Below, piece by piece: positions 38,245 through 51,715 of a stretch of DNA of 64,000 nt (the first letter of the stretch is position 1; each line of letters starts with the position of its first letter). The notes beneath the pieces were generated by a model, which saw nothing but the letters and a program-made list of their open reading frames with translations, searched no databases and was not told where the DNA came from. A program made the translations under genes and the position numbers. This DNA is from Bacteroidales bacterium (GTDB taxonomy: Bacteria > Bacteroidota > Bacteroidia > Bacteroidales > UBA7960), in contig SKRM01000003.1 in NCBI GenBank assembly GCA_007118495.1, forward strand, positions 12,334 through 76,333, given 5' to 3'.

Positions 38245-39729
38245 TTATTGTTTACCCAAAACAGCTTGAATGTATATTAAAGGATCTGTCAGCTGCACAG
38301 CAGCTTCATGTGTAATCTTCATCACAGGGCCTACAAAAACTCCAAGCAATATAACTGCCAGGACCAACAGTGATGAAGCAGCAAGGGTCAGGTTACTCAC
38401 CCTTGAAGGTGCAGGCATGTTTTCAGGTTCACTTTTCCAATAGGCTTCATTCCAGATTTTGACCATTGAAAACAAAGTGAACAAGCCCACAGCAATGGCC
38501 ACACCGGTAATGAGGTAATCACCGGCTGCAAACCCTCCTTTTACAAGAAACAGTTTTCCGAAAAATCCCGGAAGGGGTGGTATCCCGGCCAGTGACATGG
38601 CCGGAACAAAAAACAGCAGGGCGAGAAAGGGCATGCTTTTATACAAGCCTCCCAGGTATTTGAGGTCATAACTGCCTGACCGTTGATATACCAGTCCGCC
38701 AGCCAGAAAGGTCCCTGTCTTTGACAGCATATTGTGCACTGTAAAATATATTGCAGCTGCAACAGCCTGGGGTGTGAAAATGACCAGCCCCATGACCATA
38801 TAACCCACCTGACTGATAATATGGAATGAAAGTATCTTGCGGATGTCAAATTGTGAGGCTGCCATCAAAACACCCACTGTCATTGTCAAACCGGCAATGA
38901 CCAGTAGAAAGATCTTCCAGAACATGACATCCTCGACCACAAATAAGCTGTAAAACCTCATCATGGTATATATGCCTACCTTGGTGAGGGTTCCGGCAAA
39001 CAATGCGGTAATGGCCACGGGAGGTGTATGATATGAGGCCGGCAGCCAAAAGAAAAAGGGAAACAGGGCTGCCTTTATGCTAAAAGCTATGAAAAATAAC
39101 ATCAGGGCGCTGTTCATATAGGGCATTTCTTCCCAGCTTCTCATCTTATAAGCCAGATCAGCCATATTGAGTGTTCCTGCCTGTCCATACATTATCCCGA
39201 TGGCAGATACAAAAAAGATTGATGCCACAAAACTGATGGTTACATATTTTACACTTCCCCGTAATTGTTCTGCTGATCCGCCAAGAGCAATGAGAACGAA
39301 TGACGAGGTAAGCATAACCTCATACCAGACATACATATTAAATATATCGCCGGTAATAAAAGCTCCGTTAACACCCATAAGCAAACCGAACACCAGGGGA
39401 TAGTAGCCAGCTGTCTGGCGCTCTTTGTCAATAAATCCGGGGCTATAGATCATAACCACCAATGCCACAAATGAAGTTGTTGTCAACATGATTGCCGACA
39501 AAAGGTCAACTACCAGGGTGATCCCGTAAGGTGCAGGCCAGCCCCCAAGCTGGAGCGTCATGATTCCCTTTCTGGATACCTCAGCCAGCAAAAGAGCTGA
39601 CAAAAATGTCAGGGCAAATGATGCAATAAGGCTGAACACCTGTTGAAAGGCAAGCCATCGCCGGGTAAATATAAGCGCTACCATAAAAAGCAGAGGCAGC
39701 ATTATGGGTAACACAAGAATCATAGTCAT
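38245..39729 (-). CDS. mrpD: Mrp-type antiporter subunit D (NuoN/NuoM-like proton-pumping subunit)
   Basis: 494 aa polytopic protein with the NADH-quinone oxidoreductase chain M/N pattern (WLPASYHTPPVAITALFAG, SQVGYM). Confidence 0.9.
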   Translation of the reverse strand: MTMILVLPIMLPLLFMVALIFTRRWLAFQQVFSLIASFALTFLSALLLAEVSRKGIMTLQLGGWPAPYGITLVVDLLSAIMLTTTSFVALVVMIYSPGFIDKERQTAGYYPLVFGLLMGVNGAFITGDIFNMYVWYEVMLTSSFVLIALGGSAEQLRGSVKYVTISFVASIFFVSAIGIMYGQAGTLNMADLAYKMRSWEEMPYMNSALMLFFIAFSIKAALFPFFFWLPASYHTPPVAITALFAGTLTKVGIYTMMRFYSLFVVEDVMFWKIFLLVIAGLTMTVGVLMAASQFDIRKILSFHIISQVGYMVMGLVIFTPQAVAAAIYFTVHNMLSKTGTFLAGGLVYQRSGSYDLKYLGGLYKSMPFLALLFFVPAMSLAGIPPLPGFFGKLFLVKGGFAAGDYLITGVAIAVGLFTLFSMVKIWNEAYWKSEPENMPAPSRVSNLTLAASSLLVLAVILLGVFVGPVMKITHEAAVQLTDPLIYIQAVLGKQ

Positions 39730-40067
39730 TCGTTTTCTGAAAGTTCGTCTAAATCAACCGTTCCGGTAACGCTATAAAACCTGTATACCAATACCAGTGC
39801 GAACGCGGTAACACCCAGTCCAATTACTATAGCTGTGAGTATCAGTGCCTGCGGAAGGGGGTCAGACATGGTCGCGGTTTCACCTTCAAGATTCCTGATA
39901 AAGGCAGGATAACCGCTGGTAAGCCCACTTGCCACAAACAATAGCAGGTTGGTGGCATACCCCAGAAATATGAGTCCGAGAACCAGCTTAAAAATATTTC
40001 TGCGTAAAAGCAGGTACACTGCCGATCCGTACAACACACCTATTAGAACTGCCAGCAATAAAAGCAT
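39726..40067 (-). CDS. mrpC: Mrp-type antiporter subunit C (NuoK-like)
   Basis: 113 aa, three TM helices. PLPQALILTAIVIG. Confidence 0.88.
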   Translation of the reverse strand: MLLLLAVLIGVLYGSAVYLLLRRNIFKLVLGLIFLGYATNLLLFVASGLTSGYPAFIRNLEGETATMSDPLPQALILTAIVIGLGVTAFALVLVYRFYSVTGTVDLDELSENE

Positions 40068-40069
40068 AT

Positions 40070-40483
40070 TTAATCCTCCATAATTGAAAACATAACCAAC
40101 ATAAGCATTCCCGCCACGGTAAGGTAAACCCCAACATCGAACAGGAGAGGAGTGCCCAGCTTTAATTCAACTACCGTATGCTGAAACAAAGTGATCCACT
40201 CACCGGTCATGAATGGAGAACCGCTGAAAAGGGCTGGAACACCGCTTAAAAGGGCGATGAGCAACCCAAGGGCTGTCATAGTAACCGGACTGAATGATAT
40301 ACTTTTCTGGGTTTTGCTTACACCAAATGCCATGGCGTAAAGGATAAATGCAGCTCCAAGCATCAGGCCACCTATAAAACCGCCACCAGGTTCATTGTGT
40401 CCGCGGTATAAAACAACCAGTGACAATACAATCAGGATGGGTCGCATATGCCGGGCGGCGATTTGTAAAATAACTGACTCCAT
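40070..40483 (-). CDS. mrpB: Mrp-type antiporter subunit B
   Basis: 137 aa. YRGHNEPGGGFIGGL is the MnhB signature. Confidence 0.88.
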   Translation of the reverse strand: MESVILQIAARHMRPILIVLSLVVLYRGHNEPGGGFIGGLMLGAAFILYAMAFGVSKTQKSISFSPVTMTALGLLIALLSGVPALFSGSPFMTGEWITLFQHTVVELKLGTPLLFDVGVYLTVAGMLMLVMFSIMED

Positions 40484-40484
40484 A

Positions 40485-42791
40485 TCAGATCTCTTTTCGT
40501 TTAGATAACTTGATCATTGAAAAGATTCCCAGTGCAGCTATGGCTATTACACTGATCTCTCCCAATGTGTCCAGTGCCCTGAAATCTACCAGGATCACAT
40601 TTACCACATTTCTGCCAAATGCTTCACTGTAGCTTGCCTCTTTAAAAAACGACGAAATGGGTTCACTCATCTGGGTTGTGCCAGCCTGAAGCACCAAAAC
40701 CATCATAAAGGCACCCACCAGTGAGGCAACAAGTCCGTCGCGCATTCTGGCTCCGCTCTCAGAGTATTTTGCATATTTTGGCAGGTGATAAAGCACAGCC
40801 ATGGCCAAAATGACCATTAATACTTCAACCATTATCATGGTTATGGCCAGGTCAACGCCGCTGAAGGCAATAAATATGATGGATATTCCAAACCCGATCA
40901 CTCCCATGGCCACCAGAGCAATGACCCTTGAGTGTGAAATCACTGCCGACAAGGCTGCTGCAATAATTAGTACAACCACTGCCACAAGGTTCAGTGGCAT
41001 GTCTGCGAAGTTCAGTTCAAGTATGATGGGGTCAGCCCTCCAAATCATTACCCAGACCAGAACAGAAGCCACGGCAAAAACTGTCATCAGATAAAAACGG
41101 TGGTATCCATGCTGTATCCGGCTGGTTTGTTTTTTGGTAAAATGAAGAAATCCATCAACAGCAGCTACAAATCCGTTGGAGAACTCTCTGGCAAAATACC
41201 TCAGGTTAATACTGCCTGAATGTTCCAGAATCATGCGCTTATACCGGTACATGAAGTAACCCGTAAAAAGGGTCAAAGCACTTAAAAGAAGAACAAGATT
41301 GAATCCATGCCAGAGTTTCAGACCCACAGCAACATGACCCGGACTGACAGAGGTAATGGCCATGGCGGTAAGAGGTGCTGCAAGATTAGCCGGGAAAAGT
41401 CCCAGCAGTAAGCTAAGCAGCACAAGTACCACAGGTCCTGCCATGAGTGCTACATAGGGGTCAAAGGGCTTCTTTTGGTAATCGGATCTTTTCCCCCAGA
41501 AAACATCCAGTGATAGTCGCAGTGAGAGGAAGACAAGCACAGAATTGGTAAAAAAAGCGGCCAGTAAAATAAGGTAACGAGAAGTAGGGGCCAGGCTTGT
41601 GGCCTCATAGATGAGCTCTTTGCCAACAAACCCGAGCATGGGTGGTATTCCGGCCATTGAAACCAGAGCCAGTGACATAACAATGGCAGCCACAGGCATT
41701 TCTTTGAACAGGCCACCCAATTTGGTAATATCTCTGGTGCCTGTCATTTTTTCAATATTTCCGGCCATCATAAACAGGGTGCCCTTGTATAAGGCATGGA
41801 CCAGCAAAAATATGATGGCAGCATTTATTGCATATTGGGTGCCTGTTCCTATAAGCAGAACCAGGGTGCCAAGGGCGCTCACAGTGGTATATGCCAGTAT
41901 TTTTTTCAGGTCAGTCTGGGTAATACTGAACCAGGCTCCCATAACCATTGTGACTGTTCCAAATGTGGTAAGCAGGATATGCCAGATTTGGGTGTCGCCC
42001 ATAACCGGATTTAGTCGGGCAAGCAAGAATACACCCGCTTTAACCATAGTGGCCGAATGCAAGAATGCGCTGACAGGCGATGGTGCAGTCATGGCACCGG
42101 GTAGCCAAAAATGAAACGGAAACTGTGCAGATTTGGTAAAAGCTCCAAGCAGGATAAGTATCAGTGCAGGCAGATACAGGACACTTGAGCGGATGGGTTC
42201 AGGATCGGCCAGTATGGTAGATAGTTCATACGTACCATAGGGCAAGCCCAACAATACAAAACCACCCAGTAACGCCAGACCCCCAAAACCAGTAATCAGC
42301 AAGGCCTGAAGGGCGGCTGTCCTGGCTTCAGGTTTTTCATGATGGTAGCCAATGAGCAGGTATGAGCTGATACTGGTGAGCTCCCAGAAAACAAACATGG
42401 TGATCAGGTTCCCTGAAACCACAATTCCCAGCATGGCTGCCATGAATAATATGAGGTAGCCCATAAACCTGCCTTTCATGGGGTAGGGTACCATATACTT
42501 TCCTGCATATATCAAAATAAATGCCCCTATGCCCAAAATGAGGAGACTGAAAAGTATTCCAAATCCATCAATATAGAAAGATAGGTTGATATCATATACA
42601 GGAATCCATTTGTAGCTTTCTGTGATAACCTCACCTTTGAGAATAACAGGGAGTGCTCTTAAATAATATATGATACCAGCAACCGGCACAATGGCATACA
42701 GAGGGCCGGCCAGATTGTTTAAATATCTTCTTGTAAAGGGAGCCAGAAACGAAAGCAATAGCAGAAGACCTATTAACAAACCGGAATTCAT
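40485..42791 (-). CDS. mrpA: Mrp-type antiporter subunit A (NuoL-like plus MnhB-like C-terminal domain)
   Basis: 768 aa polytopic protein. WELTSISSYLLIGY, FHFWLPGAMTAPSPVSAFLHSATMVKAG. First gene of the mrpABCDEFG operon. Confidence 0.92.
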   Translation of the reverse strand: MNSGLLIGLLLLLSFLAPFTRRYLNNLAGPLYAIVPVAGIIYYLRALPVILKGEVITESYKWIPVYDINLSFYIDGFGILFSLLILGIGAFILIYAGKYMVPYPMKGRFMGYLILFMAAMLGIVVSGNLITMFVFWELTSISSYLLIGYHHEKPEARTAALQALLITGFGGLALLGGFVLLGLPYGTYELSTILADPEPIRSSVLYLPALILILLGAFTKSAQFPFHFWLPGAMTAPSPVSAFLHSATMVKAGVFLLARLNPVMGDTQIWHILLTTFGTVTMVMGAWFSITQTDLKKILAYTTVSALGTLVLLIGTGTQYAINAAIIFLLVHALYKGTLFMMAGNIEKMTGTRDITKLGGLFKEMPVAAIVMSLALVSMAGIPPMLGFVGKELIYEATSLAPTSRYLILLAAFFTNSVLVFLSLRLSLDVFWGKRSDYQKKPFDPYVALMAGPVVLVLLSLLLGLFPANLAAPLTAMAITSVSPGHVAVGLKLWHGFNLVLLLSALTLFTGYFMYRYKRMILEHSGSINLRYFAREFSNGFVAAVDGFLHFTKKQTSRIQHGYHRFYLMTVFAVASVLVWVMIWRADPIILELNFADMPLNLVAVVVLIIAAALSAVISHSRVIALVAMGVIGFGISIIFIAFSGVDLAITMIMVEVLMVILAMAVLYHLPKYAKYSESGARMRDGLVASLVGAFMMVLVLQAGTTQMSEPISSFFKEASYSEAFGRNVVNVILVDFRALDTLGEISVIAIAALGIFSMIKLSKRKEI

Positions 42792-43100
42792 TGGTAAGAC
42801 GTTTTATCTGTATAAATTACCGGTATTGACCGGAAAACGAATTCATAACACAAGGTAGGGGATTATTGTTTACTAAATTAGAAAAAAAACAGATGAGTTT
42901 AACTTCAGTATTGCTGGCCTTGAAACAGTTGAACAGCGTGAAAAAAAACTGAATTTATGACACTTATTTTTTTGTTTTACACCGTAAACATGTCAATATG
43001 ACACCATTAGAGTCAAATAATACACATCTAATACACTGGCATACCTTTTGAAGAGGAATGGGTGAATCTCTAAACATTCATTGTTTAACTATTAAAATAA

Positions 43101-43107
43101 AGGAGGG
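43101..43107 (+). promoter_or_regulatory. Canonical Shine-Dalgarno (AGGAGGG) for hsp20
   Basis: AGGAGG ends 7 nt before ATG 43114. No other start codon I inspected in this window has an SD at functional spacing. Confidence 0.6.
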
Positions 43108-43113
43108 TTAGCT

Positions 43114-43551
43114 ATGTTACCAATGCTGAGAAAAAACCGTGGCAACGTGCCCAGCTTTATTGATGAGTTTTTTGGCAGAGACTGGATGGACAGCGTATTC
43201 AGTGACCAGCCAGGTATCAGTACCCCTGCAGTAAATGTGAAAGAAAACAATGATGATTTTCTCATTGAAGTGGCGGCTCCGGGTCTGGAGAAAAATGATT
43301 TCAAAATTGACCTCGACAACAATGTGCTTAGCATTTCAAGCGAGAAAGAAATCAGAAACGAAGACAAAGAAGAAGGACGCTATATGCGCAGGGAGTTCAG
43401 CTATACCTCATTCAGTCGTTCTTTCAGCTTGCCCGAAGCAGTTGATGCTGAGAAAATAAAGGCAAAGCATAAGGATGGTATTTTGACGATAACCATTCCA
43501 AAAAGGGAAGAAGCCAAAAGGAAACCACCCAAACAAATTGCTATTTCATAA
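43114..43551 (+). CDS. Hsp20/alpha-crystallin family small heat-shock protein
   Basis: 145 aa. PAVNVKENNDDFLIEVAAPGLEKNDFKIDL, SFSRSFSLPEAVD, AKHKDGILTITIPK. Confidence 0.93.
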   Translation: MLPMLRKNRGNVPSFIDEFFGRDWMDSVFSDQPGISTPAVNVKENNDDFLIEVAAPGLEKNDFKIDLDNNVLSISSEKEIRNEDKEEGRYMRREFSYTSFSRSFSLPEAVDAEKIKAKHKDGILTITIPKREEAKRKPPKQIAIS

Positions 43552-43569
43552 GGATGCCGGGCGCACCAT

Positions 43570-43606
43570 AAAAAAAGGGAGAGCCAGAAAAGCTCTCCCT
43601 TTTTTT
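43570..43606. terminator. Bidirectional Rho-independent terminator between hsp20 (+) and the rubrerythrin-like gene (-)
   Basis: A7 tract, then an 8-bp GC-rich stem GGGAGAGC / GCTCTCCC with a 7-nt loop, then a T7 tract. It reads as a terminator on both strands. Confidence 0.85.
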
Positions 43607-43618
43607 ATGGTTTGAGGG

Positions 43619-44074
43619 CTAATTGTCACGCATTACGTAATCATCGTATTCAATTTCAAACCTGAGCTTATGTTTTGACTCTTCAACAGCCAGAGCCTCA
43701 AAAACACGTTTCAGTTCAGGATTATCAACCCGTTCAGATAATTTGGTGTAAAGCTTAAAGGCTGCCTTTTCACGCTTCATGGCCAATACCAGCGCGTCTC
43801 TGTACTCCATCTCTTCAGTATTTTTGGTCCTGACCACGTAGTCGGCAATTTTAAGGTCGTTTACCCGCTCTATTTCCATGTCGAACAGACCTTCATCTTT
43901 TATTTTTTGCAATCTGGCCTTATGGCCTACTTCTTCTTTTGCAAACTGAATGAAAGTTTCCTTCATCTCTTTATTCTGCATTTTTGCAGCAAGTGATGTA
44001 TAGAAGTCAACGGCTTCTTGTTCTGATTGCATGGCAAAATCCAGGATTTCATTTACGGAGCTAAATGCTTGCAT
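43619..44074 (-). CDS. Rubrerythrin-like di-iron (ferritin-like) protein without rubredoxin domain
   Basis: 151 aa. Two ExxH di-iron motifs (AKEEVGH, AVEESKH) with upstream Glu partners. No CxxC pairs. Begins 13 nt after the upstream gene. Confidence 0.8.
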   Translation of the reverse strand: MQAFSSVNEILDFAMQSEQEAVDFYTSLAAKMQNKEMKETFIQFAKEEVGHKARLQKIKDEGLFDMEIERVNDLKIADYVVRTKNTEEMEYRDALVLAMKREKAAFKLYTKLSERVDNPELKRVFEALAVEESKHKLRFEIEYDDYVMRDN

Positions 44075-44087
44075 AATAATGTCCGGT

Positions 44088-47000
44088 TTATGTGTTTAAA
44101 AATGTATTCTTCCAATTGTCATCAAAGCGCTTAACAAGGTAATCGCATCCATGATCAAACATTTTTTTGTTGGCTTCATGGGTGGTATACGCCAGCCTGT
44201 AAAGACCTTTGCTCTGATTGCCTACAAATGAGGCCACTTCAAGCATGACATCAGCAGGACCTTCGTAGTCTGCCTTGATTCCAAGGCCAAACAGAAGTGC
44301 TTTAAGTTGGGTCAGTGAACTAAATTCAAGATTTGATTGACTTACCGGCTCAAATTGCTGAATGAATTTCTGGGTATTGGTAAAACTGCCGCCAATTTCT
44401 GTGTGCAATGATGCCGGAAGCACCAAGTCAGCCAATTGTGCTGTATCTGACATAAACAGATCTTGCACCACCAGAAACTCCGTTTTTTTCAGTGTATTTG
44501 TAACCATTTGTCCCTCCAGGGCACAACCTGCCGGATCTTCACAGAAAATAAAAGCATTTTTTATTTTACCTGCTGAAAGTAAGGCCCACTGATCTTGTTC
44601 AATATAGGCCTGCATTGTATCGAGGCCCCAAATCTCAGCCAGTTTTTCAACTACCTTTGGTTCAGACATCATATTTCCGCCAGGGGCTAAGGCTGCACAC
44701 GCACCCATGTCAAGTAACCCTTGTGCATTGTTTTTTTCCTTTAATGGAATAAGTCCACTGGCAGTTTTACCACTTTTACCGGTAATCATGCATAGGTTTC
44801 TGAGCTCTTGTGAGGTTTGCGCGCTTACATTTTTTTCAGAGAATATGAGGATTGCGTGTGGTTCCTGGTTGAATTCCCGGGCAAACCGGGCAATTTCTTC
44901 TTCACTGCATCCAGCTTCATTTAACAAATGACCAAAGTCTTCAGAGAGCACTTTTTCGCGGTATGTTTCAAATGCATCGCAATGATCATCAATAAATACC
45001 ATGTTCTCCATTTTATTTGAAAGGACGTAATGGAGTACTGCTTTAACAAAATAATACCCTGACAACATTTGAACCACCCTGGTGGCCTTTTGCTTCATGC
45101 TGTTGTTATTCTTGCTGGTAATAAGCTCAAAGGGAGTGCCCTGGTTAAAATGGGTGTTGAAGGCTTCGTATCCCGGAACACCATGTTCGTAATTGATCTC
45201 TGAATCGAATATGTATATTCTGCCCGCTTTACTTATTTGTGTCAGGGGTACCGAAAACTGGCTGTTCAGAAAATAGCCTCCTCCACGGCCCATATAATGG
45301 AAACTGCTTACCTGGTTTGTTTTGACACCAGCCCGTGCAAGTTTCTGGATCAGGTACATTTCTTCATTGGTCAACCTGGCGCCAATGTAAAACCCGTTTT
45401 CAGCCGGCTGTACACTACTGATTTTTTCCAGTATGGTTTCAAAGGCCTCTTTAAAGGATATTTCAACAAATTTTCCGTCAATTTTTTTCAATGGTTTGGT
45501 GATGCGGCTTTTATCATTCAGGTAATGATATCCGAATTTGGCATAACGGCAAATGTTTCCGTTTTTATTAATCAGCCCTTTGCTGCCCGTTGTCCTTGAT
45601 ACGAACCCGCCCTTATGGTGAAGCTCTATCTGACACCCCACTGAACAATAATTACAAATGGTGGTCATCACATCGGTTGGTACAGGCATGGTCTTGAAAG
45701 GCACATTCTCTGTCAGGGCCCCCGTTGGGCAAGTATCAATACATAGTCCGCATGATTCACATTGGGTATCCTGCAGCCGACCATCCATTGATGGAGCTAT
45801 GTGGGTATCAAAGCCTCTGTTTACAAGACCCAGGGCGTTTGCACCGTTAACCTCTGAACAAATCCTGATGCAGCGCGAACAAAGGATACACTTATTGTTG
45901 TCAATTTCAATAAACGGATGTCCAAAATCAACCTGGTATTTGCGATATTCGCCTCCAAACCGCCTTTGTTCTGCCTTATACTGGCTGGCATACTTTTTCA
46001 GGTCGCATGTATGAAGTTCTGAGCAACCACATTCAAGACAGCGCCTGGTTTCTTCAATGGCTGCCTGTTGTCTGTAACCCAGTTCTACTTCATTGAAATT
46101 ATCCCTTGCCTGGGGATCAAGTGTGGGCATCTCTTCACGGATTTGCTCTTTGAAATGTCCGTGGTATTCTTCGCTGACCTGCTTTTCAAAATGGTCTTTT
46201 TTGCTTAAAAATTCTTTTACAGGGGGGGTGATCTCCTCATTGCGCAGCCATTTGCTGCAGCTGTTTGCTGCCAGCCTTCCCTGGGCTATGGCCTCGATCA
46301 GTGTGGCCGGGCCTGTTACGCCGTCACCACAGGCAAATACATTGTCAATGGAGGTCTGCAATGTATTTGTATCTGCATCTATATCTCCCCATTTGTTAAG
46401 TTTCAGCTCTCTGCCTGCATGCTCAGATATATTATCGATGAAATCTACTACGGTTTTCTGTCCGATGGCGGCAAGGATAAAATCTAATTTGACATCAAAC
46501 TCTGATCCTTCTATTTTCACAGGCCTTCTGCGGCCTGACGCGTCGGGCTCCCCAAGCTCCATCCGTATACAACTCAGCGATTCAAGGTTGCCGTTTTTGT
46601 CTTTGTTTACCCTGGCCGGGGCAGTGAGAAACATGTAGTTGATCCCTTCGAGTTTTGATTCGTGAATTTCAATGGGATTGGCAGGCATTTCCTTTTCGGT
46701 TCTCCTGTAAATAACTGTAACATCTTCAGCACCACATCGTTTTGCTGTCCTGCAGCAGTCCATGGCAGTGTTTCCACCACCTATAACGGCAACTTTTTTA
46801 CCTGTGAAGTCATATTTCTGACCAGTCATTTCCATGTTGCGGAGAAAATCAATCCCCGAAAAGATATTTCCGGCATCATCATTTTCACAACCTATACCTG
46901 TTCCTTTCTGAGAACCAATGGCCAATATGCTGGCATCATATTTATTCTTTAGTTCAGCGTAGTTGAGGTTATCACCCAGTTTTTTCCCATAATGGATGTT

Positions 47001-47777
47001 GACACCAAGACCTGTTATCCCTTCAATTTCTTTTTCAATCACCTCATTGGGAAGGCGGTAGGGGGGAATCCCGTACCTGAGCATTCCACCAGCATGTGGA
47101 CTTGCTTCAAATATATCCACATGGTGTCCATCAATTGCCAGGTAGTATGCAGCAGTTAAACCGCCGGGGCCGGCACCTATCACCGCTACTTTTTTTCCCG
47201 AGGCAGGTTTAACAACAGGCATATAGCGGTTGTCTGAAAACATATCAATATCTGAGGTATACCGTTTAAGGTAGTCAATACCCACGCCGATATCTTCAAG
47301 TAAATTTCGGCGACAAACAAGTTCACACGGCCGCACACATACCCTGCCGCAAATGGCTGGCAAGGGATTGGTTTGCTTGATCAATTCAACCGCTTCTCTG
47401 TGTTTACCCTTGCTGATCATGGATATATATCCCTGAACATCAACCCCTGCAGGACATTCTTCACGGCATGGAGGGGCACAGTCGGCATAATGGTTGCTGA
47501 CCAATAGTTCAAGGCTGAATTTTCTTGACCTGTGCACCCGGTCATTATCTGTTTCAATGCGCATCCCTTCAGTAATTCTGGTAGAACAGGCCGGCTGCAA
47601 ACCGCGCATACCTTCTACCTCAACTACACATAAATAGCAAGACGAAAACGGTTCAAGCCTGTCGTCATGACATAGTGTGGGAATTTCTATGTCCAGTCTC
47701 CGGGCCATTTCTAAAATGGTTTCACCCTTGATACCCTGTACTATTTTACCGTTAATGATGATATTGAGTTTACCCAT
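44088..47777 (-). CDS. NuoG/HydA-N-like FeS subunit fused to a GltD-like NAD(P)H flavoenzyme and a MopB-like domain (BfuA/NfnA-like)
   Basis: 1229 aa with four parts. (1) aa 1-80: plant-type 2Fe-2S, C36/C47/C50/C64. (2) aa ~95-510: GltD-like, with CAPPCREECP, CGRVCVRPCELVC, VAVIGAGPGG, GGMLRYGIPPYRLP, VIGGGNTAMD. (3) aa ~575-695: FeS clusters CLECGCSELHTC, CILCSRCIRIC, CESCGLCIDTCP. (4) aa 705-1229: CNYCSVGCQ..C plus a molybdopterin-oxidoreductase-like fold. Confidence 0.8.
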   Translation of the reverse strand: MGKLNIIINGKIVQGIKGETILEMARRLDIEIPTLCHDDRLEPFSSCYLCVVEVEGMRGLQPACSTRITEGMRIETDNDRVHRSRKFSLELLVSNHYADCAPPCREECPAGVDVQGYISMISKGKHREAVELIKQTNPLPAICGRVCVRPCELVCRRNLLEDIGVGIDYLKRYTSDIDMFSDNRYMPVVKPASGKKVAVIGAGPGGLTAAYYLAIDGHHVDIFEASPHAGGMLRYGIPPYRLPNEVIEKEIEGITGLGVNIHYGKKLGDNLNYAELKNKYDASILAIGSQKGTGIGCENDDAGNIFSGIDFLRNMEMTGQKYDFTGKKVAVIGGGNTAMDCCRTAKRCGAEDVTVIYRRTEKEMPANPIEIHESKLEGINYMFLTAPARVNKDKNGNLESLSCIRMELGEPDASGRRRPVKIEGSEFDVKLDFILAAIGQKTVVDFIDNISEHAGRELKLNKWGDIDADTNTLQTSIDNVFACGDGVTGPATLIEAIAQGRLAANSCSKWLRNEEITPPVKEFLSKKDHFEKQVSEEYHGHFKEQIREEMPTLDPQARDNFNEVELGYRQQAAIEETRRCLECGCSELHTCDLKKYASQYKAEQRRFGGEYRKYQVDFGHPFIEIDNNKCILCSRCIRICSEVNGANALGLVNRGFDTHIAPSMDGRLQDTQCESCGLCIDTCPTGALTENVPFKTMPVPTDVMTTICNYCSVGCQIELHHKGGFVSRTTGSKGLINKNGNICRYAKFGYHYLNDKSRITKPLKKIDGKFVEISFKEAFETILEKISSVQPAENGFYIGARLTNEEMYLIQKLARAGVKTNQVSSFHYMGRGGGYFLNSQFSVPLTQISKAGRIYIFDSEINYEHGVPGYEAFNTHFNQGTPFELITSKNNNSMKQKATRVVQMLSGYYFVKAVLHYVLSNKMENMVFIDDHCDAFETYREKVLSEDFGHLLNEAGCSEEEIARFAREFNQEPHAILIFSEKNVSAQTSQELRNLCMITGKSGKTASGLIPLKEKNNAQGLLDMGACAALAPGGNMMSEPKVVEKLAEIWGLDTMQAYIEQDQWALLSAGKIKNAFIFCEDPAGCALEGQMVTNTLKKTEFLVVQDLFMSDTAQLADLVLPASLHTEIGGSFTNTQKFIQQFEPVSQSNLEFSSLTQLKALLFGLGIKADYEGPADVMLEVASFVGNQSKGLYRLAYTTHEANKKMFDHGCDYLVKRFDDNWKNTFLNT

Positions 47778-47811
47778 GATTTCAAGTTGGAGTTGATTGA
47801 TTTTTTAATGA

Positions 47812-49590
47812 TCAGCTGATGGCTATGGCTTCAAATTTACACCTGGTAAGACAAACACCACATTGAATGCATAGCTCCTGGTCAATGTGATGCACCTGCT
47901 TTCTTTGTCCGGTAATGGCATCTACAGGGCAACCCTTGATACAAGCCATACATCCGGTGCATTTTTCTTCTGCGACAGTGTAGGTGAGTAATTTTTTGCA
48001 ACTTAGTGCGGGACATTTCTTATCGCGGATATGAGCTTCATACTCATCACGGAAATACTTAATGGTGGTAAGAACTGGATTGGGAGCAGTTTGCCCCAGT
48101 CCACAAAGTGAACTGTCTTTGATGGTTTCAGCAATCTCTTCAAGCAACTCAATATCGCCCTCTTTGCCTTCGCCCCCGGTAATCCGGGTAAGTGTCTCGA
48201 GCATACGTTTGGTTCCTATCCGGCAGAATGTGCATTTGCCACATGACTCCTTCTGTGTGAAATCAAGAAAAAATCTGGCGATGTCTACAACACAGGTTGT
48301 TTCATCCATGACCACCATACCTCCCGAACCCATGATGGCCCCGGTAGCGTTTACAGAATCATAATCAACCAGGGTATGTGAAAGGTGCTCGGGAATGCAA
48401 CCCCCTGAAGGACCTCCCAGCTGAACCGCCTTAAACCTTTTATTGTCAGTGATACCACCTCCAAGATTATAAATTATATCCTTGATGCTGATACCCATAG
48501 GAACTTCTACGAGTCCGCCGTGCCTGATTTTTCCTGTCAGGGCAAAAACCTTTGTTCCCTTTGATTTTTCTGTGCCATAACTGGCATATTTTTCGGGTCC
48601 ATGGTAAATGATCCATGGAATATTGATAAAAGTTTCGACGTTGTTTATATTGGTTGGATGTTTCCAGAGCCCTGCCTCGGCCGGAAACGGAGGCCGTCGC
48701 CTTGGCATGCCCCTGGCTCCCTCAATGGAGGCAATCAGGGCTGTTTCTTCGCCACAAACAAATGCTCCGGCGCCTTCTTTGATCTGCACATCAAAATCAA
48801 ATCCGCTGATCCCAAAAAGATTTTTACCGAGGTAACCTTTTTCTCTTGCCTGTACAATGGCCAGATTCAGACGTTTGATAGCCAGGGGATATTCTGCCCT
48901 GCAGTATATATATCCCGCATTGGCACCAATGGCATAGCCACAGATGATCATGCCTTCAAGCACGCCATGTGGATCGCCTTCAAGAATGGATCTGTCCATA
49001 AATGCGCCGGGATCACCTTCGTCGGCATTGCATATGACATATTTTTGCTCTGATTGATGATTTCGCGCAAACCTCCATTTCATGCCGGTAAGAAAGCCAC
49101 CGCCACCACGTCCTCTGATGCCCGAATCCAATACAGATTGAATAACCTGGTCGGGACTGATATTCTGGCCTGCAATTTTCCTGATGGCCTTGTAACCATC
49201 ACGTGCTTCATATTCACCAATTGACTCGGGGTCAATATGACCACAGTTTCTCAAACTTATCTTTACCTGACCTTCAAAAAACTGTGCATCAGCAGATACT
49301 ATTTTGTCAGATTGTACGATATACTCAGGAATCGGGGTGAATTTCCTTATATGTTTGTCAATGATTTCATCCACCCTCGGGATATCCACTTCGCCATACA
49401 TATAGGTTCCGGTATCATCTATAATCTCAACCAAAGGTTCCTTGTAGCACATGCCGATACAACTGGTTTTCTTGAGTTCAATATCCAGTTTGTCTGATTC
49501 GATAATGCGTTGGAACTCTTTGTATGTTTTGTTGGCTCCTGCAGCTATCCCACAACTTCCCAGGCCTACGATTACCTTTGTTTGTCCCAT
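47812..49590 (-). CDS. NuoF/HydB/HndC-like FMN- and NAD(H)-binding FeS subunit (BfuB-like)
   Basis: 592 aa. N-terminal thioredoxin-like 2Fe-2S region (GSCGIAAG..CIGMC). GRGGGGFLTGMKW FMN/NADH site. CGKCTFCRIG 4Fe-4S. C-terminal 2x[4Fe-4S] (CTGCMACIKGCP, CIQCGVCLTRC). Confidence 0.9.
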   Translation of the reverse strand: MGQTKVIVGLGSCGIAAGANKTYKEFQRIIESDKLDIELKKTSCIGMCYKEPLVEIIDDTGTYMYGEVDIPRVDEIIDKHIRKFTPIPEYIVQSDKIVSADAQFFEGQVKISLRNCGHIDPESIGEYEARDGYKAIRKIAGQNISPDQVIQSVLDSGIRGRGGGGFLTGMKWRFARNHQSEQKYVICNADEGDPGAFMDRSILEGDPHGVLEGMIICGYAIGANAGYIYCRAEYPLAIKRLNLAIVQAREKGYLGKNLFGISGFDFDVQIKEGAGAFVCGEETALIASIEGARGMPRRRPPFPAEAGLWKHPTNINNVETFINIPWIIYHGPEKYASYGTEKSKGTKVFALTGKIRHGGLVEVPMGISIKDIIYNLGGGITDNKRFKAVQLGGPSGGCIPEHLSHTLVDYDSVNATGAIMGSGGMVVMDETTCVVDIARFFLDFTQKESCGKCTFCRIGTKRMLETLTRITGGEGKEGDIELLEEIAETIKDSSLCGLGQTAPNPVLTTIKYFRDEYEAHIRDKKCPALSCKKLLTYTVAEEKCTGCMACIKGCPVDAITGQRKQVHHIDQELCIQCGVCLTRCKFEAIAIS

Positions 49591-49610
49591 GGTAATTATA
49601 TCTTTTGGTA

Positions 49611-50132
49611 TTAATTGATTTCGCTTCTGCGTATTTCTTTGATGATCTTTACAGCTTCCTTTGGCGTTAATTTCCCATAGGTTTCTTCTCCGATCATCAT
49701 TACGGGCGCCAGTGAGCAGCAGCCCAGGCAGGCTACTGTTTCAACAGTAAATAGCCGGTCAGAGGTGGTTTCACCGTCTTTGATCTGCAGCATATCAAGT
49801 ATTTCATCGGTAATAGCTGTTACACTCTGAACATGACAGGCTGTCCCATGGCACATTTTTACAATGTGTTTTCCGGCGGGTGCCAGCCTGAATTGCGCAT
49901 AAAATGTAGCTACTCCGTACATTTCATTCAGTTCAAGACCTGTTTCTTCATGGATGCGGTAAAAGGCCGCACGGGGAAGAAATCCATATATATCCTGTGT
50001 GCCCTGCAACAAGGGTATAAGGTTCCCTTTTTTTGTTTTGTATTTTGCAATGAGTCCATCCATCAGGCTTAGATCAACCTGAATCTCGGGTGTTTCATTT
50101 ATTTGCCGGGGCTTGATTCTTTCAATGCGCAT
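49611..50132 (-). CDS. NuoE/HydC/HndA-like 2Fe-2S subunit (BfuC-like)
   Basis: 173 aa. MCHGTACHV and CLGCCSLAPVMMI provide the four cluster cysteines. Confidence 0.9.
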   Translation of the reverse strand: MRIERIKPRQINETPEIQVDLSLMDGLIAKYKTKKGNLIPLLQGTQDIYGFLPRAAFYRIHEETGLELNEMYGVATFYAQFRLAPAGKHIVKMCHGTACHVQSVTAITDEILDMLQIKDGETTSDRLFTVETVACLGCCSLAPVMMIGEETYGKLTPKEAVKIIKEIRRSEIN

Positions 50133-50282
50133 AATTGCAGTGGGTTTTACTGTTTCTGGCTGAAAATTACATAAAAATAGAGCAGGGGTCGAAAATGTAA
50201 TAAATATTTTTTTTGAACTATATTTCTTGCATATATCGAAAATATTTATATGGTTTTATGCAAAATCAAAGACTGTATCATT

Positions 50283-50322
50283 AAAAAAACCGGGGTTATT
50301 TGCATTAAGCAAAAACCCCGGT
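50283..50322 (-). terminator. Rho-independent terminator after glutamate dehydrogenase 1
   Basis: On the minus strand: ACCGGGGTT, a 16-nt loop, AACCCCGGT, then a T7 tract. It lies 56 nt downstream of the gdh stop and separates gdh from the nuoE-like operon. Confidence 0.7.
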
Positions 50323-50377
50323 AGTATCAAATCTGGTTAAGTCAAATGCAAACTCATTCTTAACCTTGCTGTTAATC

Positions 50378-51715
50378 TTAGATTACGCCCTGGTCAATCA
50401 TGGCATCGGCTACCTTTATAAAGCCTGCAATGTTTGCTCCTTTAACGTAGTTTATGTATCCATCCTCTTCTGTACCATGTTTCTTGCAAGCTTCATGAAT
50501 GTTCTTCATGATCTGGTGCAGTTTTTCCTCAACTTCTTCAGCTGTCCAGTTGAGTTTCATGGCATTTTGGGTCTGCTCAAGACCTGATGTGGCTACACCA
50601 CCTGCATTGGCAGCTTTGCCGGGGCCGTATAGTACCTTGGCTTCCTGAAGAATTTCAACTGCTTCAGGCGTACAGGGCATATTGGCTCCTTCTGAAATCG
50701 CCATGACGCCATTATTCACCAGGTTTTTGGCGTCTTCTACATCAAGCTCATTCTGGATGGCGCAGGGCATGGCTATGTCGCACTTGACTTCCCACGGACG
50801 CTTGCCTTCAAAGAATTGTGCATTGGGGAATTCATAGGTATATGGCTTTACAATATCCTGGTTTGAGGCACGAAGTTCGAGCAGATAGTCGATCTTATCG
50901 CCAGAAATTCCATCCGGATCATATACATAACCATCAGGACCACTAATGGTAACTACTTTTGCACCCAGCTGGGTTGCCTTGCTGGCAGCACCCCATGATA
51001 CGTTACCGAATCCTGAAATAGCTACGGTTTTACCCTGAAGCTTCTCACCACGGGTTTTGAGCATTTCTTCTGCAAAGTATACAGCTCCGTATCCGGTAGC
51101 CTCAGGACGGATCAGGCTGCCGCCCCAGTTACGTCCCTTGCCTGTGAATGTGCCGGTATGCTCGCCTGTAAGCTTTTTGTACATACCAAACATATAACCA
51201 ATTTCACGGCCACCAACTCCAATGTCTCCTGCCGGAATATCGGTGTCTGGTCCGATGTATTTATACAGCTCAGCCATGAATGCCTGGCAGAAACGCATAA
51301 TTTCAGACTGGGACTTGCCTTTTGGGTCAAAGTCAGATCCGCCTTTTGCACCACCCATTGGAAGTGTGGTCAGGCTGTTTTTGAAAATCTGCTCAAAACC
51401 AAGGAATTTCAGTCCGCTGAGGGTAACACTTGGGTGGAAGCGACAACCGCCTTTATAAGGCCCGATAGCATTGTTAAATTGCACACGGTAACCTCTGTTT
51501 ACATGCACATTGCCTTTGTCATCAACCCATTGAACTTTGAAGGAAATCACCCTATCGGGCTCAGTTATTCTTTCAATAATGTTAGCAGCCTGATATTTTG
51601 GGTTTTCAGCAACCACGTCAATGATGGTTTCAAGAACTTCCCTTGCTGCTTGCAAAAACTCTTTTTCGCCCGGATTCTTGCGTTCCAGGTCAGCCATTAT
51701 TTTTTCTAAATTCAT
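50378..51715 (-). CDS. gdh: Hexameric glutamate dehydrogenase, Clostridium symbiosum / Bacteroides GdhB-like dinucleotide fingerprint (probably NAD(H)-preferring)
   Basis: 445 aa. [15 protein letters not shown] catalytic Lys region. Rossmann turn ISGFGNVSWGAA followed by TISGPDGYVYDPDG, which I recall from the NAD-specific C. symbiosum enzyme. Confidence 0.9.
   Translation of the reverse strand: MNLEKIMADLERKNPGEKEFLQAAREVLETIIDVVAENPKYQAANIIERITEPDRVISFKVQWVDDKGNVHVNRGYRVQFNNAIGPYKGGCRFHPSVTLSGLKFLGFEQIFKNSLTTLPMGGAKGGSDFDPKGKSQSEIMRFCQAFMAELYKYIGPDTDIPAGDIGVGGREIGYMFGMYKKLTGEHTGTFTGKGRNWGGSLIRPEATGYGAVYFAEEMLKTRGEKLQGKTVAISGFGNVSWGAASKATQLGAKVVTISGPDGYVYDPDGISGDKIDYLLELRASNQDIVKPYTYEFPNAQFFEGKRPWEVKCDIAMPCAIQNELDVEDAKNLVNNGVMAISEGANMPCTPEAVEILQEAKVLYGPGKAANAGGVATSGLEQTQNAMKLNWTAEEVEEKLHQIMKNIHEACKKHGTEEDGYINYVKGANIAGFIKVADAMIDQGVI

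Follow-up and report, generated by a model that had tools for sequence, protein, structure and literature searches.

A predicted StnABC/NfnABC-type transhydrogenase operon of a Bacteroidales bacterium with a conserved fourth gene for a rubrerythrin-like di-iron protein

Introduction

The closest described relatives of the locus reported here are the transhydrogenases StnABC of Sporomusa ovata (8OH5) and NfnABC of Caldicellulosiruptor saccharolyticus (Csac; 9BOV), which belong to Type 1 of the Bfu family, and the archaeal Nfn-Bfu of Thermococcus sibiricus (9N5U). Their biochemistry (PMC7483475) and structures (PMC10482914, PMC11829005, PMC12018979) have been described. The genes of the two bacterial enzymes are arranged in the order C-B-A, and the functional unit is a heterotrimer, found as a tetramer of trimers. 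StnC consists of an N-terminal [2Fe-2S] domain (residues 1-101), a GltD-like NADPH module (102-565), NuoG-type clusters and an inactive FdhF-like part (683-1172) (PMC10482914). The two-subunit NfnSL (NfnAB) shares the overall reaction with these enzymes, and its NfnL is homologous to the GltD/NfnL-like module of NfnA; however, the FAD of NfnL bifurcates, whereas in Stn/NfnABC the FAD is non-bifurcating and the FMN-containing BC core bifurcates. The distributions of Stn and Nfn are reported to be nearly exclusive (PMC7483475). A further group, Rub-Bfu (Type 4 Bfu), is itself uncharacterised; its rubrerythrin was predicted to take electrons from BfuBC for peroxide detoxification at the expense of NADH and ferredoxin (Schut et al. 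2022, PMC9304861).

Here we describe a four-gene operon (nfnC, nfnB, nfnA and a fourth gene encoding a di-iron protein; the nfn operon) in a 64,000-nucleotide stretch of a Bacteroidales bacterium (assembly GCA_007118495.1, contig SKRM01000003.1, positions 12,334 to 76,333), hereafter the window. On the evidence of homology, ligand conservation, synteny and co-transcription, the operon very probably encodes an orthologue-level NfnABC/StnABC transhydrogenase (Type 1 Bfu) together with a co-transcribed di-iron protein that most likely removes H2O2 or O2. The core enzyme is of a known, structurally solved kind and belongs to a new divergent lineage. What is new relative to the known systems is the conserved, co-transcribed fourth gene, a real lineage-specific variant.

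Results and discussion

Three genes match the subunits of Stn/NfnABC enzymes

Four minus-strand open reading frames (ORFs) make up the operon, with gaps of 20, 34 and 13 nt in the ORF list (Table 1). The initial annotation, made from the sequence alone, had described four closely spaced genes for a NuoE-like 2Fe-2S protein, a 592-aa NuoF-like protein with additional FeS domains at both ends, a 1229-aa fusion protein and a rubrerythrin-like protein lacking rubredoxin; coordinates and Pfam domains agree with it on these points, and the E-values indicate matches far from chance. It had also proposed an NADH/ferredoxin/NADP(H) oxidoreductase of the Bfu family, and in structure searches the best matches of all three subunits are the solved Stn/Nfn complexes, with alignments that span the whole proteins. 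The assignment of the first three genes to the Stn/NfnABC type is supported by these comparisons.

NfnC matched the family 2Fe-2S_thioredx (E 9.5e-47). Its top three structure matches were the C subunits of solved Stn/Nfn complexes, Csac NfnC (9bov_C, E 1e-53) and StnA (8oh5_A, E 6e-49) being the best matches in the PDB. Two cysteine motifs, CHGTAC and CLGCC, are kept in the alignment with NfnC and StnA, which provides the ligands of the C1 [2Fe-2S] cluster.

NfnB contains Complex1_51K (E 3e-46), NADH_4Fe-4S and a C-terminal Fer4 pair, and its N-terminus gave a weak thioredoxin-like 2Fe-2S match. Over its full length it matched StnB (8oh5_B, E 1e-261), followed by 9bov_B and 9n5u_B (E up to 4e-249), and every hydrogenase HydB ranked below these B subunits. 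NfnB shows 64% identity with StnB, 61% with Csac NfnB and 54% with the HydB paralogue encoded in the same genome. Alignment to StnB and Csac NfnB showed that the zinc linker 'YEAHIRDKKCPALSCKKLLTY' (3Cys-1His, B2), the N-terminal B5 site (C13, C44, C48 and E51) and the C-terminal two-cluster B3/B4 domain are kept; together these are the hallmarks of a bifurcating BfuB.

In NfnA, Pfam detected Fer2_4 (4-78), Fer4_20 (100-178) and Pyr_redox_2 (195-500), followed in the second half by Fer4_Nqo3 (621-689), Molybdop_Fe4S4 (703-754) and Molybdopterin (758-1150). The complete GltD unit that had been proposed at 46248..47495 corresponds to residues 95-510 and is exactly the Fer4_20 and Pyr_redox_2 block. 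A check for lost FAD- or NAD(P)H-binding residues in this insert found the GAGPGG (FAD) and GGGNTAMD...YRR (NADPH) motifs and the cluster ligands intact. The full-length structure matches were StnC (8oh5_C, E 2.8e-234), 9bov_A and 9n5u_A. The initial annotation had stated that the triple fusion could not be matched to a characterised enzyme. This does not hold, because StnC (1172 aa) has the identical domain layout, as does Csac NfnA (1178 aa).

Ligands were compared with StnC over residues 1-816, whose sequence was rebuilt from the PDB alignment. All 28 alignable cluster cysteines, belonging to seven clusters, are kept in NfnA. The ligands of the FAD-proximal A7 cluster (C108, C147, C151 and K171, the last equivalent to the strictly conserved StnC K170) are present, and the arginine near the FAD is kept (R241, equivalent to StnC R239). 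Over NfnA residues 1-830, identity to StnC (residues 1-816) is 42%; it is 37-38% when the Sporomusa and Caldicellulosiruptor NfnA are compared in full. In the Fdh-like part, the position of the molybdenum-ligand Cys/Sec of YjgC/FdhF reads 'HY--MGRGGG', so the ligand is lost, and Pfam did not match PF01568 (Molydop_binding), the cap that binds molybdopterin guanine dinucleotide. As in StnC, the domain is a remnant and is predicted to be non-catalytic, both the ligand and the cap being absent. We also observed that this part keeps the MopB-type motifs GKxGK, KxKNN..G..DMG and FCEDP.G in at least 97% of 77 sequences, as well as the C1211-D1212 pair and the C-terminal T1229.

The locus therefore shares with StnABC and NfnABC the gene order, the domain layout of all subunits, the alignable cluster ligands including the A7 lysine, the FAD and NADPH motifs, the zinc linker, the B5 site, the B3/B4 ferredoxin domain and the inactive Fdh-like C-terminus. 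In contrast to them, its NfnA is ~55 residues longer, has an Fdh-like part nearer to real formate dehydrogenases (FDHs), has valine in place of C114, and falls into a separate, monophyletic clade of Bacteroidota and Ignavibacteriota. The archaeal Nfn-Bfu has the three subunits and the reaction in common, with strong full-length matches of its B and C subunits, but its NfnA (963 aa) is a monomer in which the A4 cluster and a portion of the Fdh-like domain are missing, whereas in the window's NfnA the bacterial-type cluster set is complete. Unlike HydABC hydrogenases and NAD-dependent FDHs, which carry an H-cluster or a Mo/W-pterin site, NfnA has neither (Pfam gave no Fe_hyd_lg_C match).

The mechanism that we propose is taken over from the characterised Stn/Nfn enzymes. 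In NfnA, NADP(H) would bind at the FAD within the GltD-like module. From there, single electrons would reach the B1-FMN-C1 'flavobicluster' of NfnB/NfnC by way of the Lys-ligated A7 cluster and the chain of NuoG-type clusters. Bifurcation would take place at this site, with NAD+ reduced at the FMN and ferredoxin reduced via the C-terminal B3/B4 clusters, and the Fdh-like domain would be a non-catalytic scaffold. The predicted physiological direction is confurcation: NADH + reduced ferredoxin + 2 NADP+ → NAD+ + oxidised ferredoxin + 2 NADPH.

Transcription of the four genes

A public metatranscriptome from alkali sediment, which contains 98% of the sampled words of the stretch, was used as the RNA source. 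Two overlapping contigs of its RNA run (X4), 43617-47442 and 47413-50095, span the four genes of the nfn operon and nothing outside them, and the former continues from nfnA over the 13-nt gap into the di-iron gene. A DNA run of the same sample (X2) gave a single contig straight across 42800-49743. Since the RNA contigs are bounded by the four genes and the DNA contig is unbroken, the data support a four-gene transcript expressed in situ.

The strong hairpin GGGAGAGC-loop-GCTCTCCC lies beside the end of the RNA at 43617, with A and T runs on its flanks. It looks like a bidirectional intrinsic terminator that closes both the operon and the convergent hsp20 gene. On the other side of the operon, a terminator-like hairpin with a T-run follows gdh and would separate this gene from the nfn operon; positions 50096-50381 are covered by no RNA contig of run X4. 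A sigma-70 promoter and terminator scan found sites no commoner than in shuffled sequence and missed both hairpins; Bacteroidetes promoters are outside such a scan.

Possible electron partners in the genome

The genome (2.63 Mb, 78 contigs, 98% complete) has six Complex1_51K genes, among them RnfC in the rnf cluster, three in [FeFe]-hydrogenase operons and one in an operon with a complete Mo-type FdhA. A search for Rnf or hydrogenase partners, which had been suggested with the initial annotation, thus found an rnf cluster and three [FeFe]-hydrogenase operons. One of the latter is HydABC-like with a 606-aa HydB, and another adjoins a HydS-like fusion of hydrogenase and histidine kinase. Each of the four hydrogenase and FDH operons has its own NuoE/NuoF pair. 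Strict pairing with a hydrogenase or FDH catalytic subunit elsewhere, which would have pointed to a conventional diaphorase, was not seen; because each such operon has its own pair, the nfn operon would not serve as the diaphorase of another hydrogenase or FDH.

Five genes for 2-oxoacid:ferredoxin oxidoreductases, including a 1182-aa PFOR, are a source of reduced ferredoxin. No classical NfnSL was found in the genome, because the sole other GltD-like gene is YgfK-like; this agrees with the near-exclusive distribution of Stn and Nfn. The nfn enzyme appears to be the sole recognisable ferredoxin-linked NADPH source of this fermentative soda-lake Bacteroidales, and points to an NADPH route for a fermenter that is without NfnSL but is equipped with Rnf, PFOR and several hydrogenases. 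The find corrects database labels such as 'formate dehydrogenase major subunit' and 'molybdopterin oxidoreductase', and widens the documented range of Nfn-Bfu to soda-lake Bacteroidales.

A conserved fourth gene downstream of nfnA

The fourth protein matched Pfam Rubrerythrin (E 4e-17). It contains zero cysteines and therefore has no rubredoxin domain. It has in common with rubrerythrin, erythrin, symerythrin, TM1526 (1VJX) and Pyrococcus furiosus 2FZF a four-helix di-iron site with two E...ExxH motifs and conserved tyrosines, and differs from classical rubrerythrin in lacking the Fe(Cys)4 rubredoxin domain. A classical rubrerythrin was rejected, with no cysteine and 19.8 bits against a cut-off of 200 in the NCBIfam model RuberyRbr. 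Residues E18, E48, H51, E102, E132, H135, Y25 and Y109 and the C-terminal HKLxFExEYD motif are invariant in an alignment of 46 orthologues. The AlphaFold 2 model is a four-helix bundle (mean confidence, pLDDT, 85.8), with TM1526 (1vjx) and the hypothetical protein 2fzf as closest folds, followed by DPS-like proteins, bacterioferritin and rubrerythrin. The sole paralogue in the genome is 28% identical and has weak matches to encapsulin-associated ferritin-like proteins.

A scan of ~185,000 species genomes confirmed 311 stretches with an NfnA relative, and the best 80 loci were analysed. Their NfnA is 56-76% identical, and they are labelled Bacteroidales, other Bacteroidota or Ignavibacteria except for three: two unlabelled bins and one 'Thiohalospira' metagenome-assembled genome. 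The genera Draconibacterium and Marinifilum appear among the labels (L040 and L047). In 71 loci the sequence reaches far enough beyond nfnA to be informative; in 62 of these a homologue of the di-iron gene lies 3' of nfnA, always on the same strand and within 200 nt in 53. The proteins are 150-152 aa long in 60 of the 61 extracted; the remaining gene (L014) is broken, with a tblastn match over 128 residues and a frame that closes after 4 codons from the expected start.

In the NfnA tree the Bacteroidota/Ignavibacteriota clade is monophyletic and far from the Firmicutes NfnA. The di-iron gene is ancestral in this clade, with ~3-4 losses or relocations, because it is present in both deep branches. 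Among 401 sampled genomes of the phylum, that of the window alone yielded the di-iron protein; the other 400 have no close NfnA orthologue, and four of them carry a distant NfnA (39% identical) and are without the di-iron protein. Within this sample, every genome that has no member of the close NfnA clade thus has no di-iron protein either. Three Firmicutes operons, reached by searching with StnC residues 1-816, were examined (Sporomusa, Caldicellulosiruptor and Clostridium carboxidivorans); they have C-B-A only, without a di-iron fourth gene. The earlier remark that the rubrerythrin-like gene is unmatched in characterised systems stands in so far as the gene is absent from these operons, which stand for the characterised systems, but it is a conserved fourth gene across its own lineage. 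A full-text literature search found no paper tying such a di-iron gene to NfnABC, the nearest being the predicted, BfuA-less 'Rub-Bfu'.

The locus labelled Thiohalospira sp. (Pseudomonadota; L064, JBKHIH010000004.1) nests within Bacteroidales in the NfnA tree beside L066; faulty binning or a recent transfer is the probable cause. Three related loci (L055, L061 and L080) have three genes between nfnA and the di-iron gene, which remains last. One encodes a zinc-ribbon protein of 295 aa and the other two form an NfnSL-like pair (PyrK-like, 274 aa, and GltD-like, 600 aa), the GltD-like protein having, on reading its sequence, an N-terminal zinc-ribbon extension. A gap of ~450-500 nt separates nfnA from the downstream di-iron gene in L030, L031 and L041, and in L030 this gap is filled by a 138-aa zinc-ribbon ORF.

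Probable role of the di-iron protein

An exhaustive HMMER search gave 793 cluster representatives at E <= 1e-10, mostly of ~150 aa. The surroundings were checked for six relatives, 40-47% identical, which have the ligands, the LKISDY motif and the terminal asparagine in common with the window protein. Two of the six lie in oxidative-stress islands, with Fur/PerR-type regulators, ferritin, desulfoferrodoxin, rubrerythrin and rubredoxin among the neighbours, as well as methionine sulfoxide reductase, a flavodiiron-type protein, superoxide dismutase, peroxiredoxin and cytochrome bd. One adjoins another rubrerythrin. The other three (L101, L102 and L103) close a conserved seven-gene GltD/Hdr-like operon, whose order is GltD-like (1124 aa), FlpD/MvhD, FrhB-like, HdrA-like (~1032 aa), HdrC-like, HdrB-like (CCG) and a 153-aa di-iron protein.

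Judging from these island, rubrerythrin and GltD/Hdr-like contexts, the family appears to be of a type used in defence against reactive oxygen species (ROS) and to have become attached repeatedly to operons that encode large NAD(P)H-linked FeS flavoenzymes. By analogy, the di-iron protein probably serves in peroxide or oxygen defence. It would either shield the oxygen-sensitive complex, with its ~40 iron atoms, or spend reducing power drawn from it.

Rub-Bfu resembles the nfn operon in having a rubrerythrin-family gene in a Bfu operon. However, it has no BfuA, and its rubrerythrin gene comes right after bfuB, whereas here nfnB is followed by a complete nfnA and only then by the di-iron gene. 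Membership in Rub-Bfu was rejected on these grounds.

Weighing the alternatives

Several points weigh against our reading of the operon as an Stn/NfnABC enzyme with a co-transcribed defence protein. StnC C114 is replaced by V114 in NfnA, and a C114A mutant of Stn lost half of its activity (PMC10482914); the change to valine is a natural variant already in the literature (PMC10482914). The Fdh-like domain matches true FDHs (E 7e-49) better than StnC's, and given this leaning and the low identity, NfnA may have a different or additional acceptor. For the fourth protein, the closest structural relatives, TM1526 and 2fzf, are without an assigned function, and conserved synteny alone is no proof of a physical or electron-transfer link. 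Finally, a metatranscriptome assembly may include DNA, and contig depth is a poor gauge of expression.

A first alternative would make the di-iron protein a genuine fourth redox partner, docked on the Fdh-like domain and fed by the 'dead-end' A4/A5 clusters, so that the complex would, besides its transhydrogenase reaction, act as a peroxidase or oxidase safety valve powered by NAD(P)H and ferredoxin. The very tight and ancient synteny and the co-transcription fit this proposal, as do the A4/A5 (C1/C2) branch of Stn/Nfn, which is without a known function (PMC10482914), and the Fdh-like domain of the clade, which is distinct and longer than that of Firmicutes. The di-iron family also ends a second, unrelated GltD/Hdr-like FeS-flavoenzyme operon, and the feeding of a rubrerythrin by BfuBC has been predicted for Rub-Bfu (PMC9304861). 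However, relatives of the protein that are encoded in oxidative-stress islands do their work with no complex of this kind, and the di-iron gene was lost or moved ~3-4 times while nfnABC was retained; in three loci, other genes stand between it and nfnA. We consider a fourth redox partner rather unlikely.

A wider form of the same proposal would make the protein a dedicated fourth subunit or acceptor on the A4/A5 branch, the complex doubling as a peroxide/oxygen reductase powered by NAD(P)H and ferredoxin, and the family a recurrent 'ROS sink' module of bifurcating complexes. It is suggested by the family also ending the GltD/Hdr-like operon, and it seems doubtful to us at present. If the di-iron protein does draw electrons from the complex, a role of the dead-end A4/A5 clusters would become testable, and likewise the predicted idea of Bfu enzymes powering peroxide detoxification.

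A second alternative is iron handling, in which the fourth protein would be a mini-ferritin or ferroxidase, or a helper of Fe-S assembly or repair, and no peroxidase. Its ferritin-like fold, weak matches to encapsulated ferritins and to the erythrin domain of MbfA, the DPS-like proteins and bacterioferritins among the top structural matches, and a NifS/NifU pair two genes downstream of a relative in L099 are compatible with such a function. However, the ligands (E, ExxH, E and ExxH, together with a conserved pair of tyrosines) are of the rubrerythrin/erythrin type, the genes around distant members mostly encode enzymes of ROS detoxification, and there is no sign of a cage-forming oligomer; iron handling is thus quite improbable compared with a defence role against peroxide or oxygen.

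That the three-subunit enzyme is a non-bifurcating NADPH-dependent reductase (Nso-type for sulfur, Sfr-type for Fe(III)) or an FDH/hydrogenase diaphorase is very improbable: the labels of its relatives ('NADPH-Fe(3+) oxidoreductase subunit beta', 'formate dehydrogenase major subunit') and the good alignment of the Fdh-like domain with real FDHs speak for it, but the BfuB/BfuC bifurcation hallmarks are complete, Nso may itself act as an Nfn-type enzyme (Kremp et al., PMC7483475), and the diaphorase reading was rejected on the absence of the molybdenum ligand, the cap and any H-cluster domain and on the NuoEF partners that the FDH and hydrogenases of the genome have of their own.

Other features of the locus

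Table 1. Positions of the nfn operon, its domains, its surroundings and related loci. Unprefixed coordinates are window positions.
Feature	Coordinates	Strand	Description	Basis
nfnC/stnA	49611..50132	-	NuoE-like subunit, 173 aa, C1 [2Fe-2S] gating cluster	ORF and Pfam
nfnB/stnB	47812..49590	-	NuoF/HydB-like, predicted bifurcating subunit, 592 aa	ORF and Pfam
NfnB sites			FMN/NAD(H), B1 cluster, Zn (B2) linker, N-terminal B5, C-terminal B3/B4 2x[4Fe-4S] ferredoxin-binding domain	
nfnA/stnC	44088..47777	-	Predicted NADP(H)-binding subunit, 1229 aa	ORF and Pfam
NfnA N-terminal [2Fe-2S] domain	~47493-47777	-		Pfam
NfnA GltD/NfnL-like module	~46218-47495	-	FAD and NADPH, two [4Fe-4S] clusters	Pfam
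NfnA NuoG-type clusters	~45513-46055	-		Pfam
NfnA Fdh/MopB-like domain	~44091-45512	-	Predicted non-catalytic; motif conservation read over 44088-45512	Pfam
Fourth gene	43619..44074	-	151-aa Cys-free four-helix-bundle di-iron-carboxylate protein, rubrerythrin/erythrin-like	ORF and Pfam
Transcribed span	43617..50095	-	Two overlapping RNA contigs	
Hairpin beside fourth gene	43570..43606	.	A and T runs on flanks	Read by eye
Hairpin and T-run after gdh	50283..50322	-	Terminator-like	Read by eye
hsp20	43114-43551	+	Convergent to the nfn operon	
Mrp-type antiporter cluster	38245-42791	-	Multisubunit cation/proton antiporter	
[FeFe]-hydrogenase (3), NuoEF-FdhA and rnf loci	C46:990-5142, C14:69993-73495, C59:29705-36006, C53:16415-20845, C34:24425-29503			
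Paralogue of di-iron protein	C17:20167-20610	-	28% identical	
Loci with three inserted genes	L055:9763-13791, L061:9779-13834, L080:6700-10785		Di-iron gene last	
Broken di-iron gene	L014:9694-10146			
GltD/Hdr-like operon	L101, L102, L103; 1-7462		Seven genes, di-iron gene last	

The initial annotation had connected the operon with a neighbouring NAD-type glutamate dehydrogenase (GDH). The neighbour is present, but the putative terminator lies between the two units, gdh adjoins the nfn operon only in the ~9 closest loci, and the cofactor may be of either type: the protein falls into the generic GDH subfamily in NCBIfam (821 bits) and is also above the cut-off of one of the two NADP-specific models. 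The claimed link is thus weak.

On the downstream side, hsp20 shares the terminator hairpin with the nfn operon and has the highest RNA contig depth of the region (~113-129, compared with 28-43 for the nfn genes, to be read with the limits of contig depth given above). Further downstream, the Mrp-type cluster encodes an MrpA-like protein of 768 aa, MnhB, a 4L-like protein and an MrpD-like protein, which fits a soda-lake organism.

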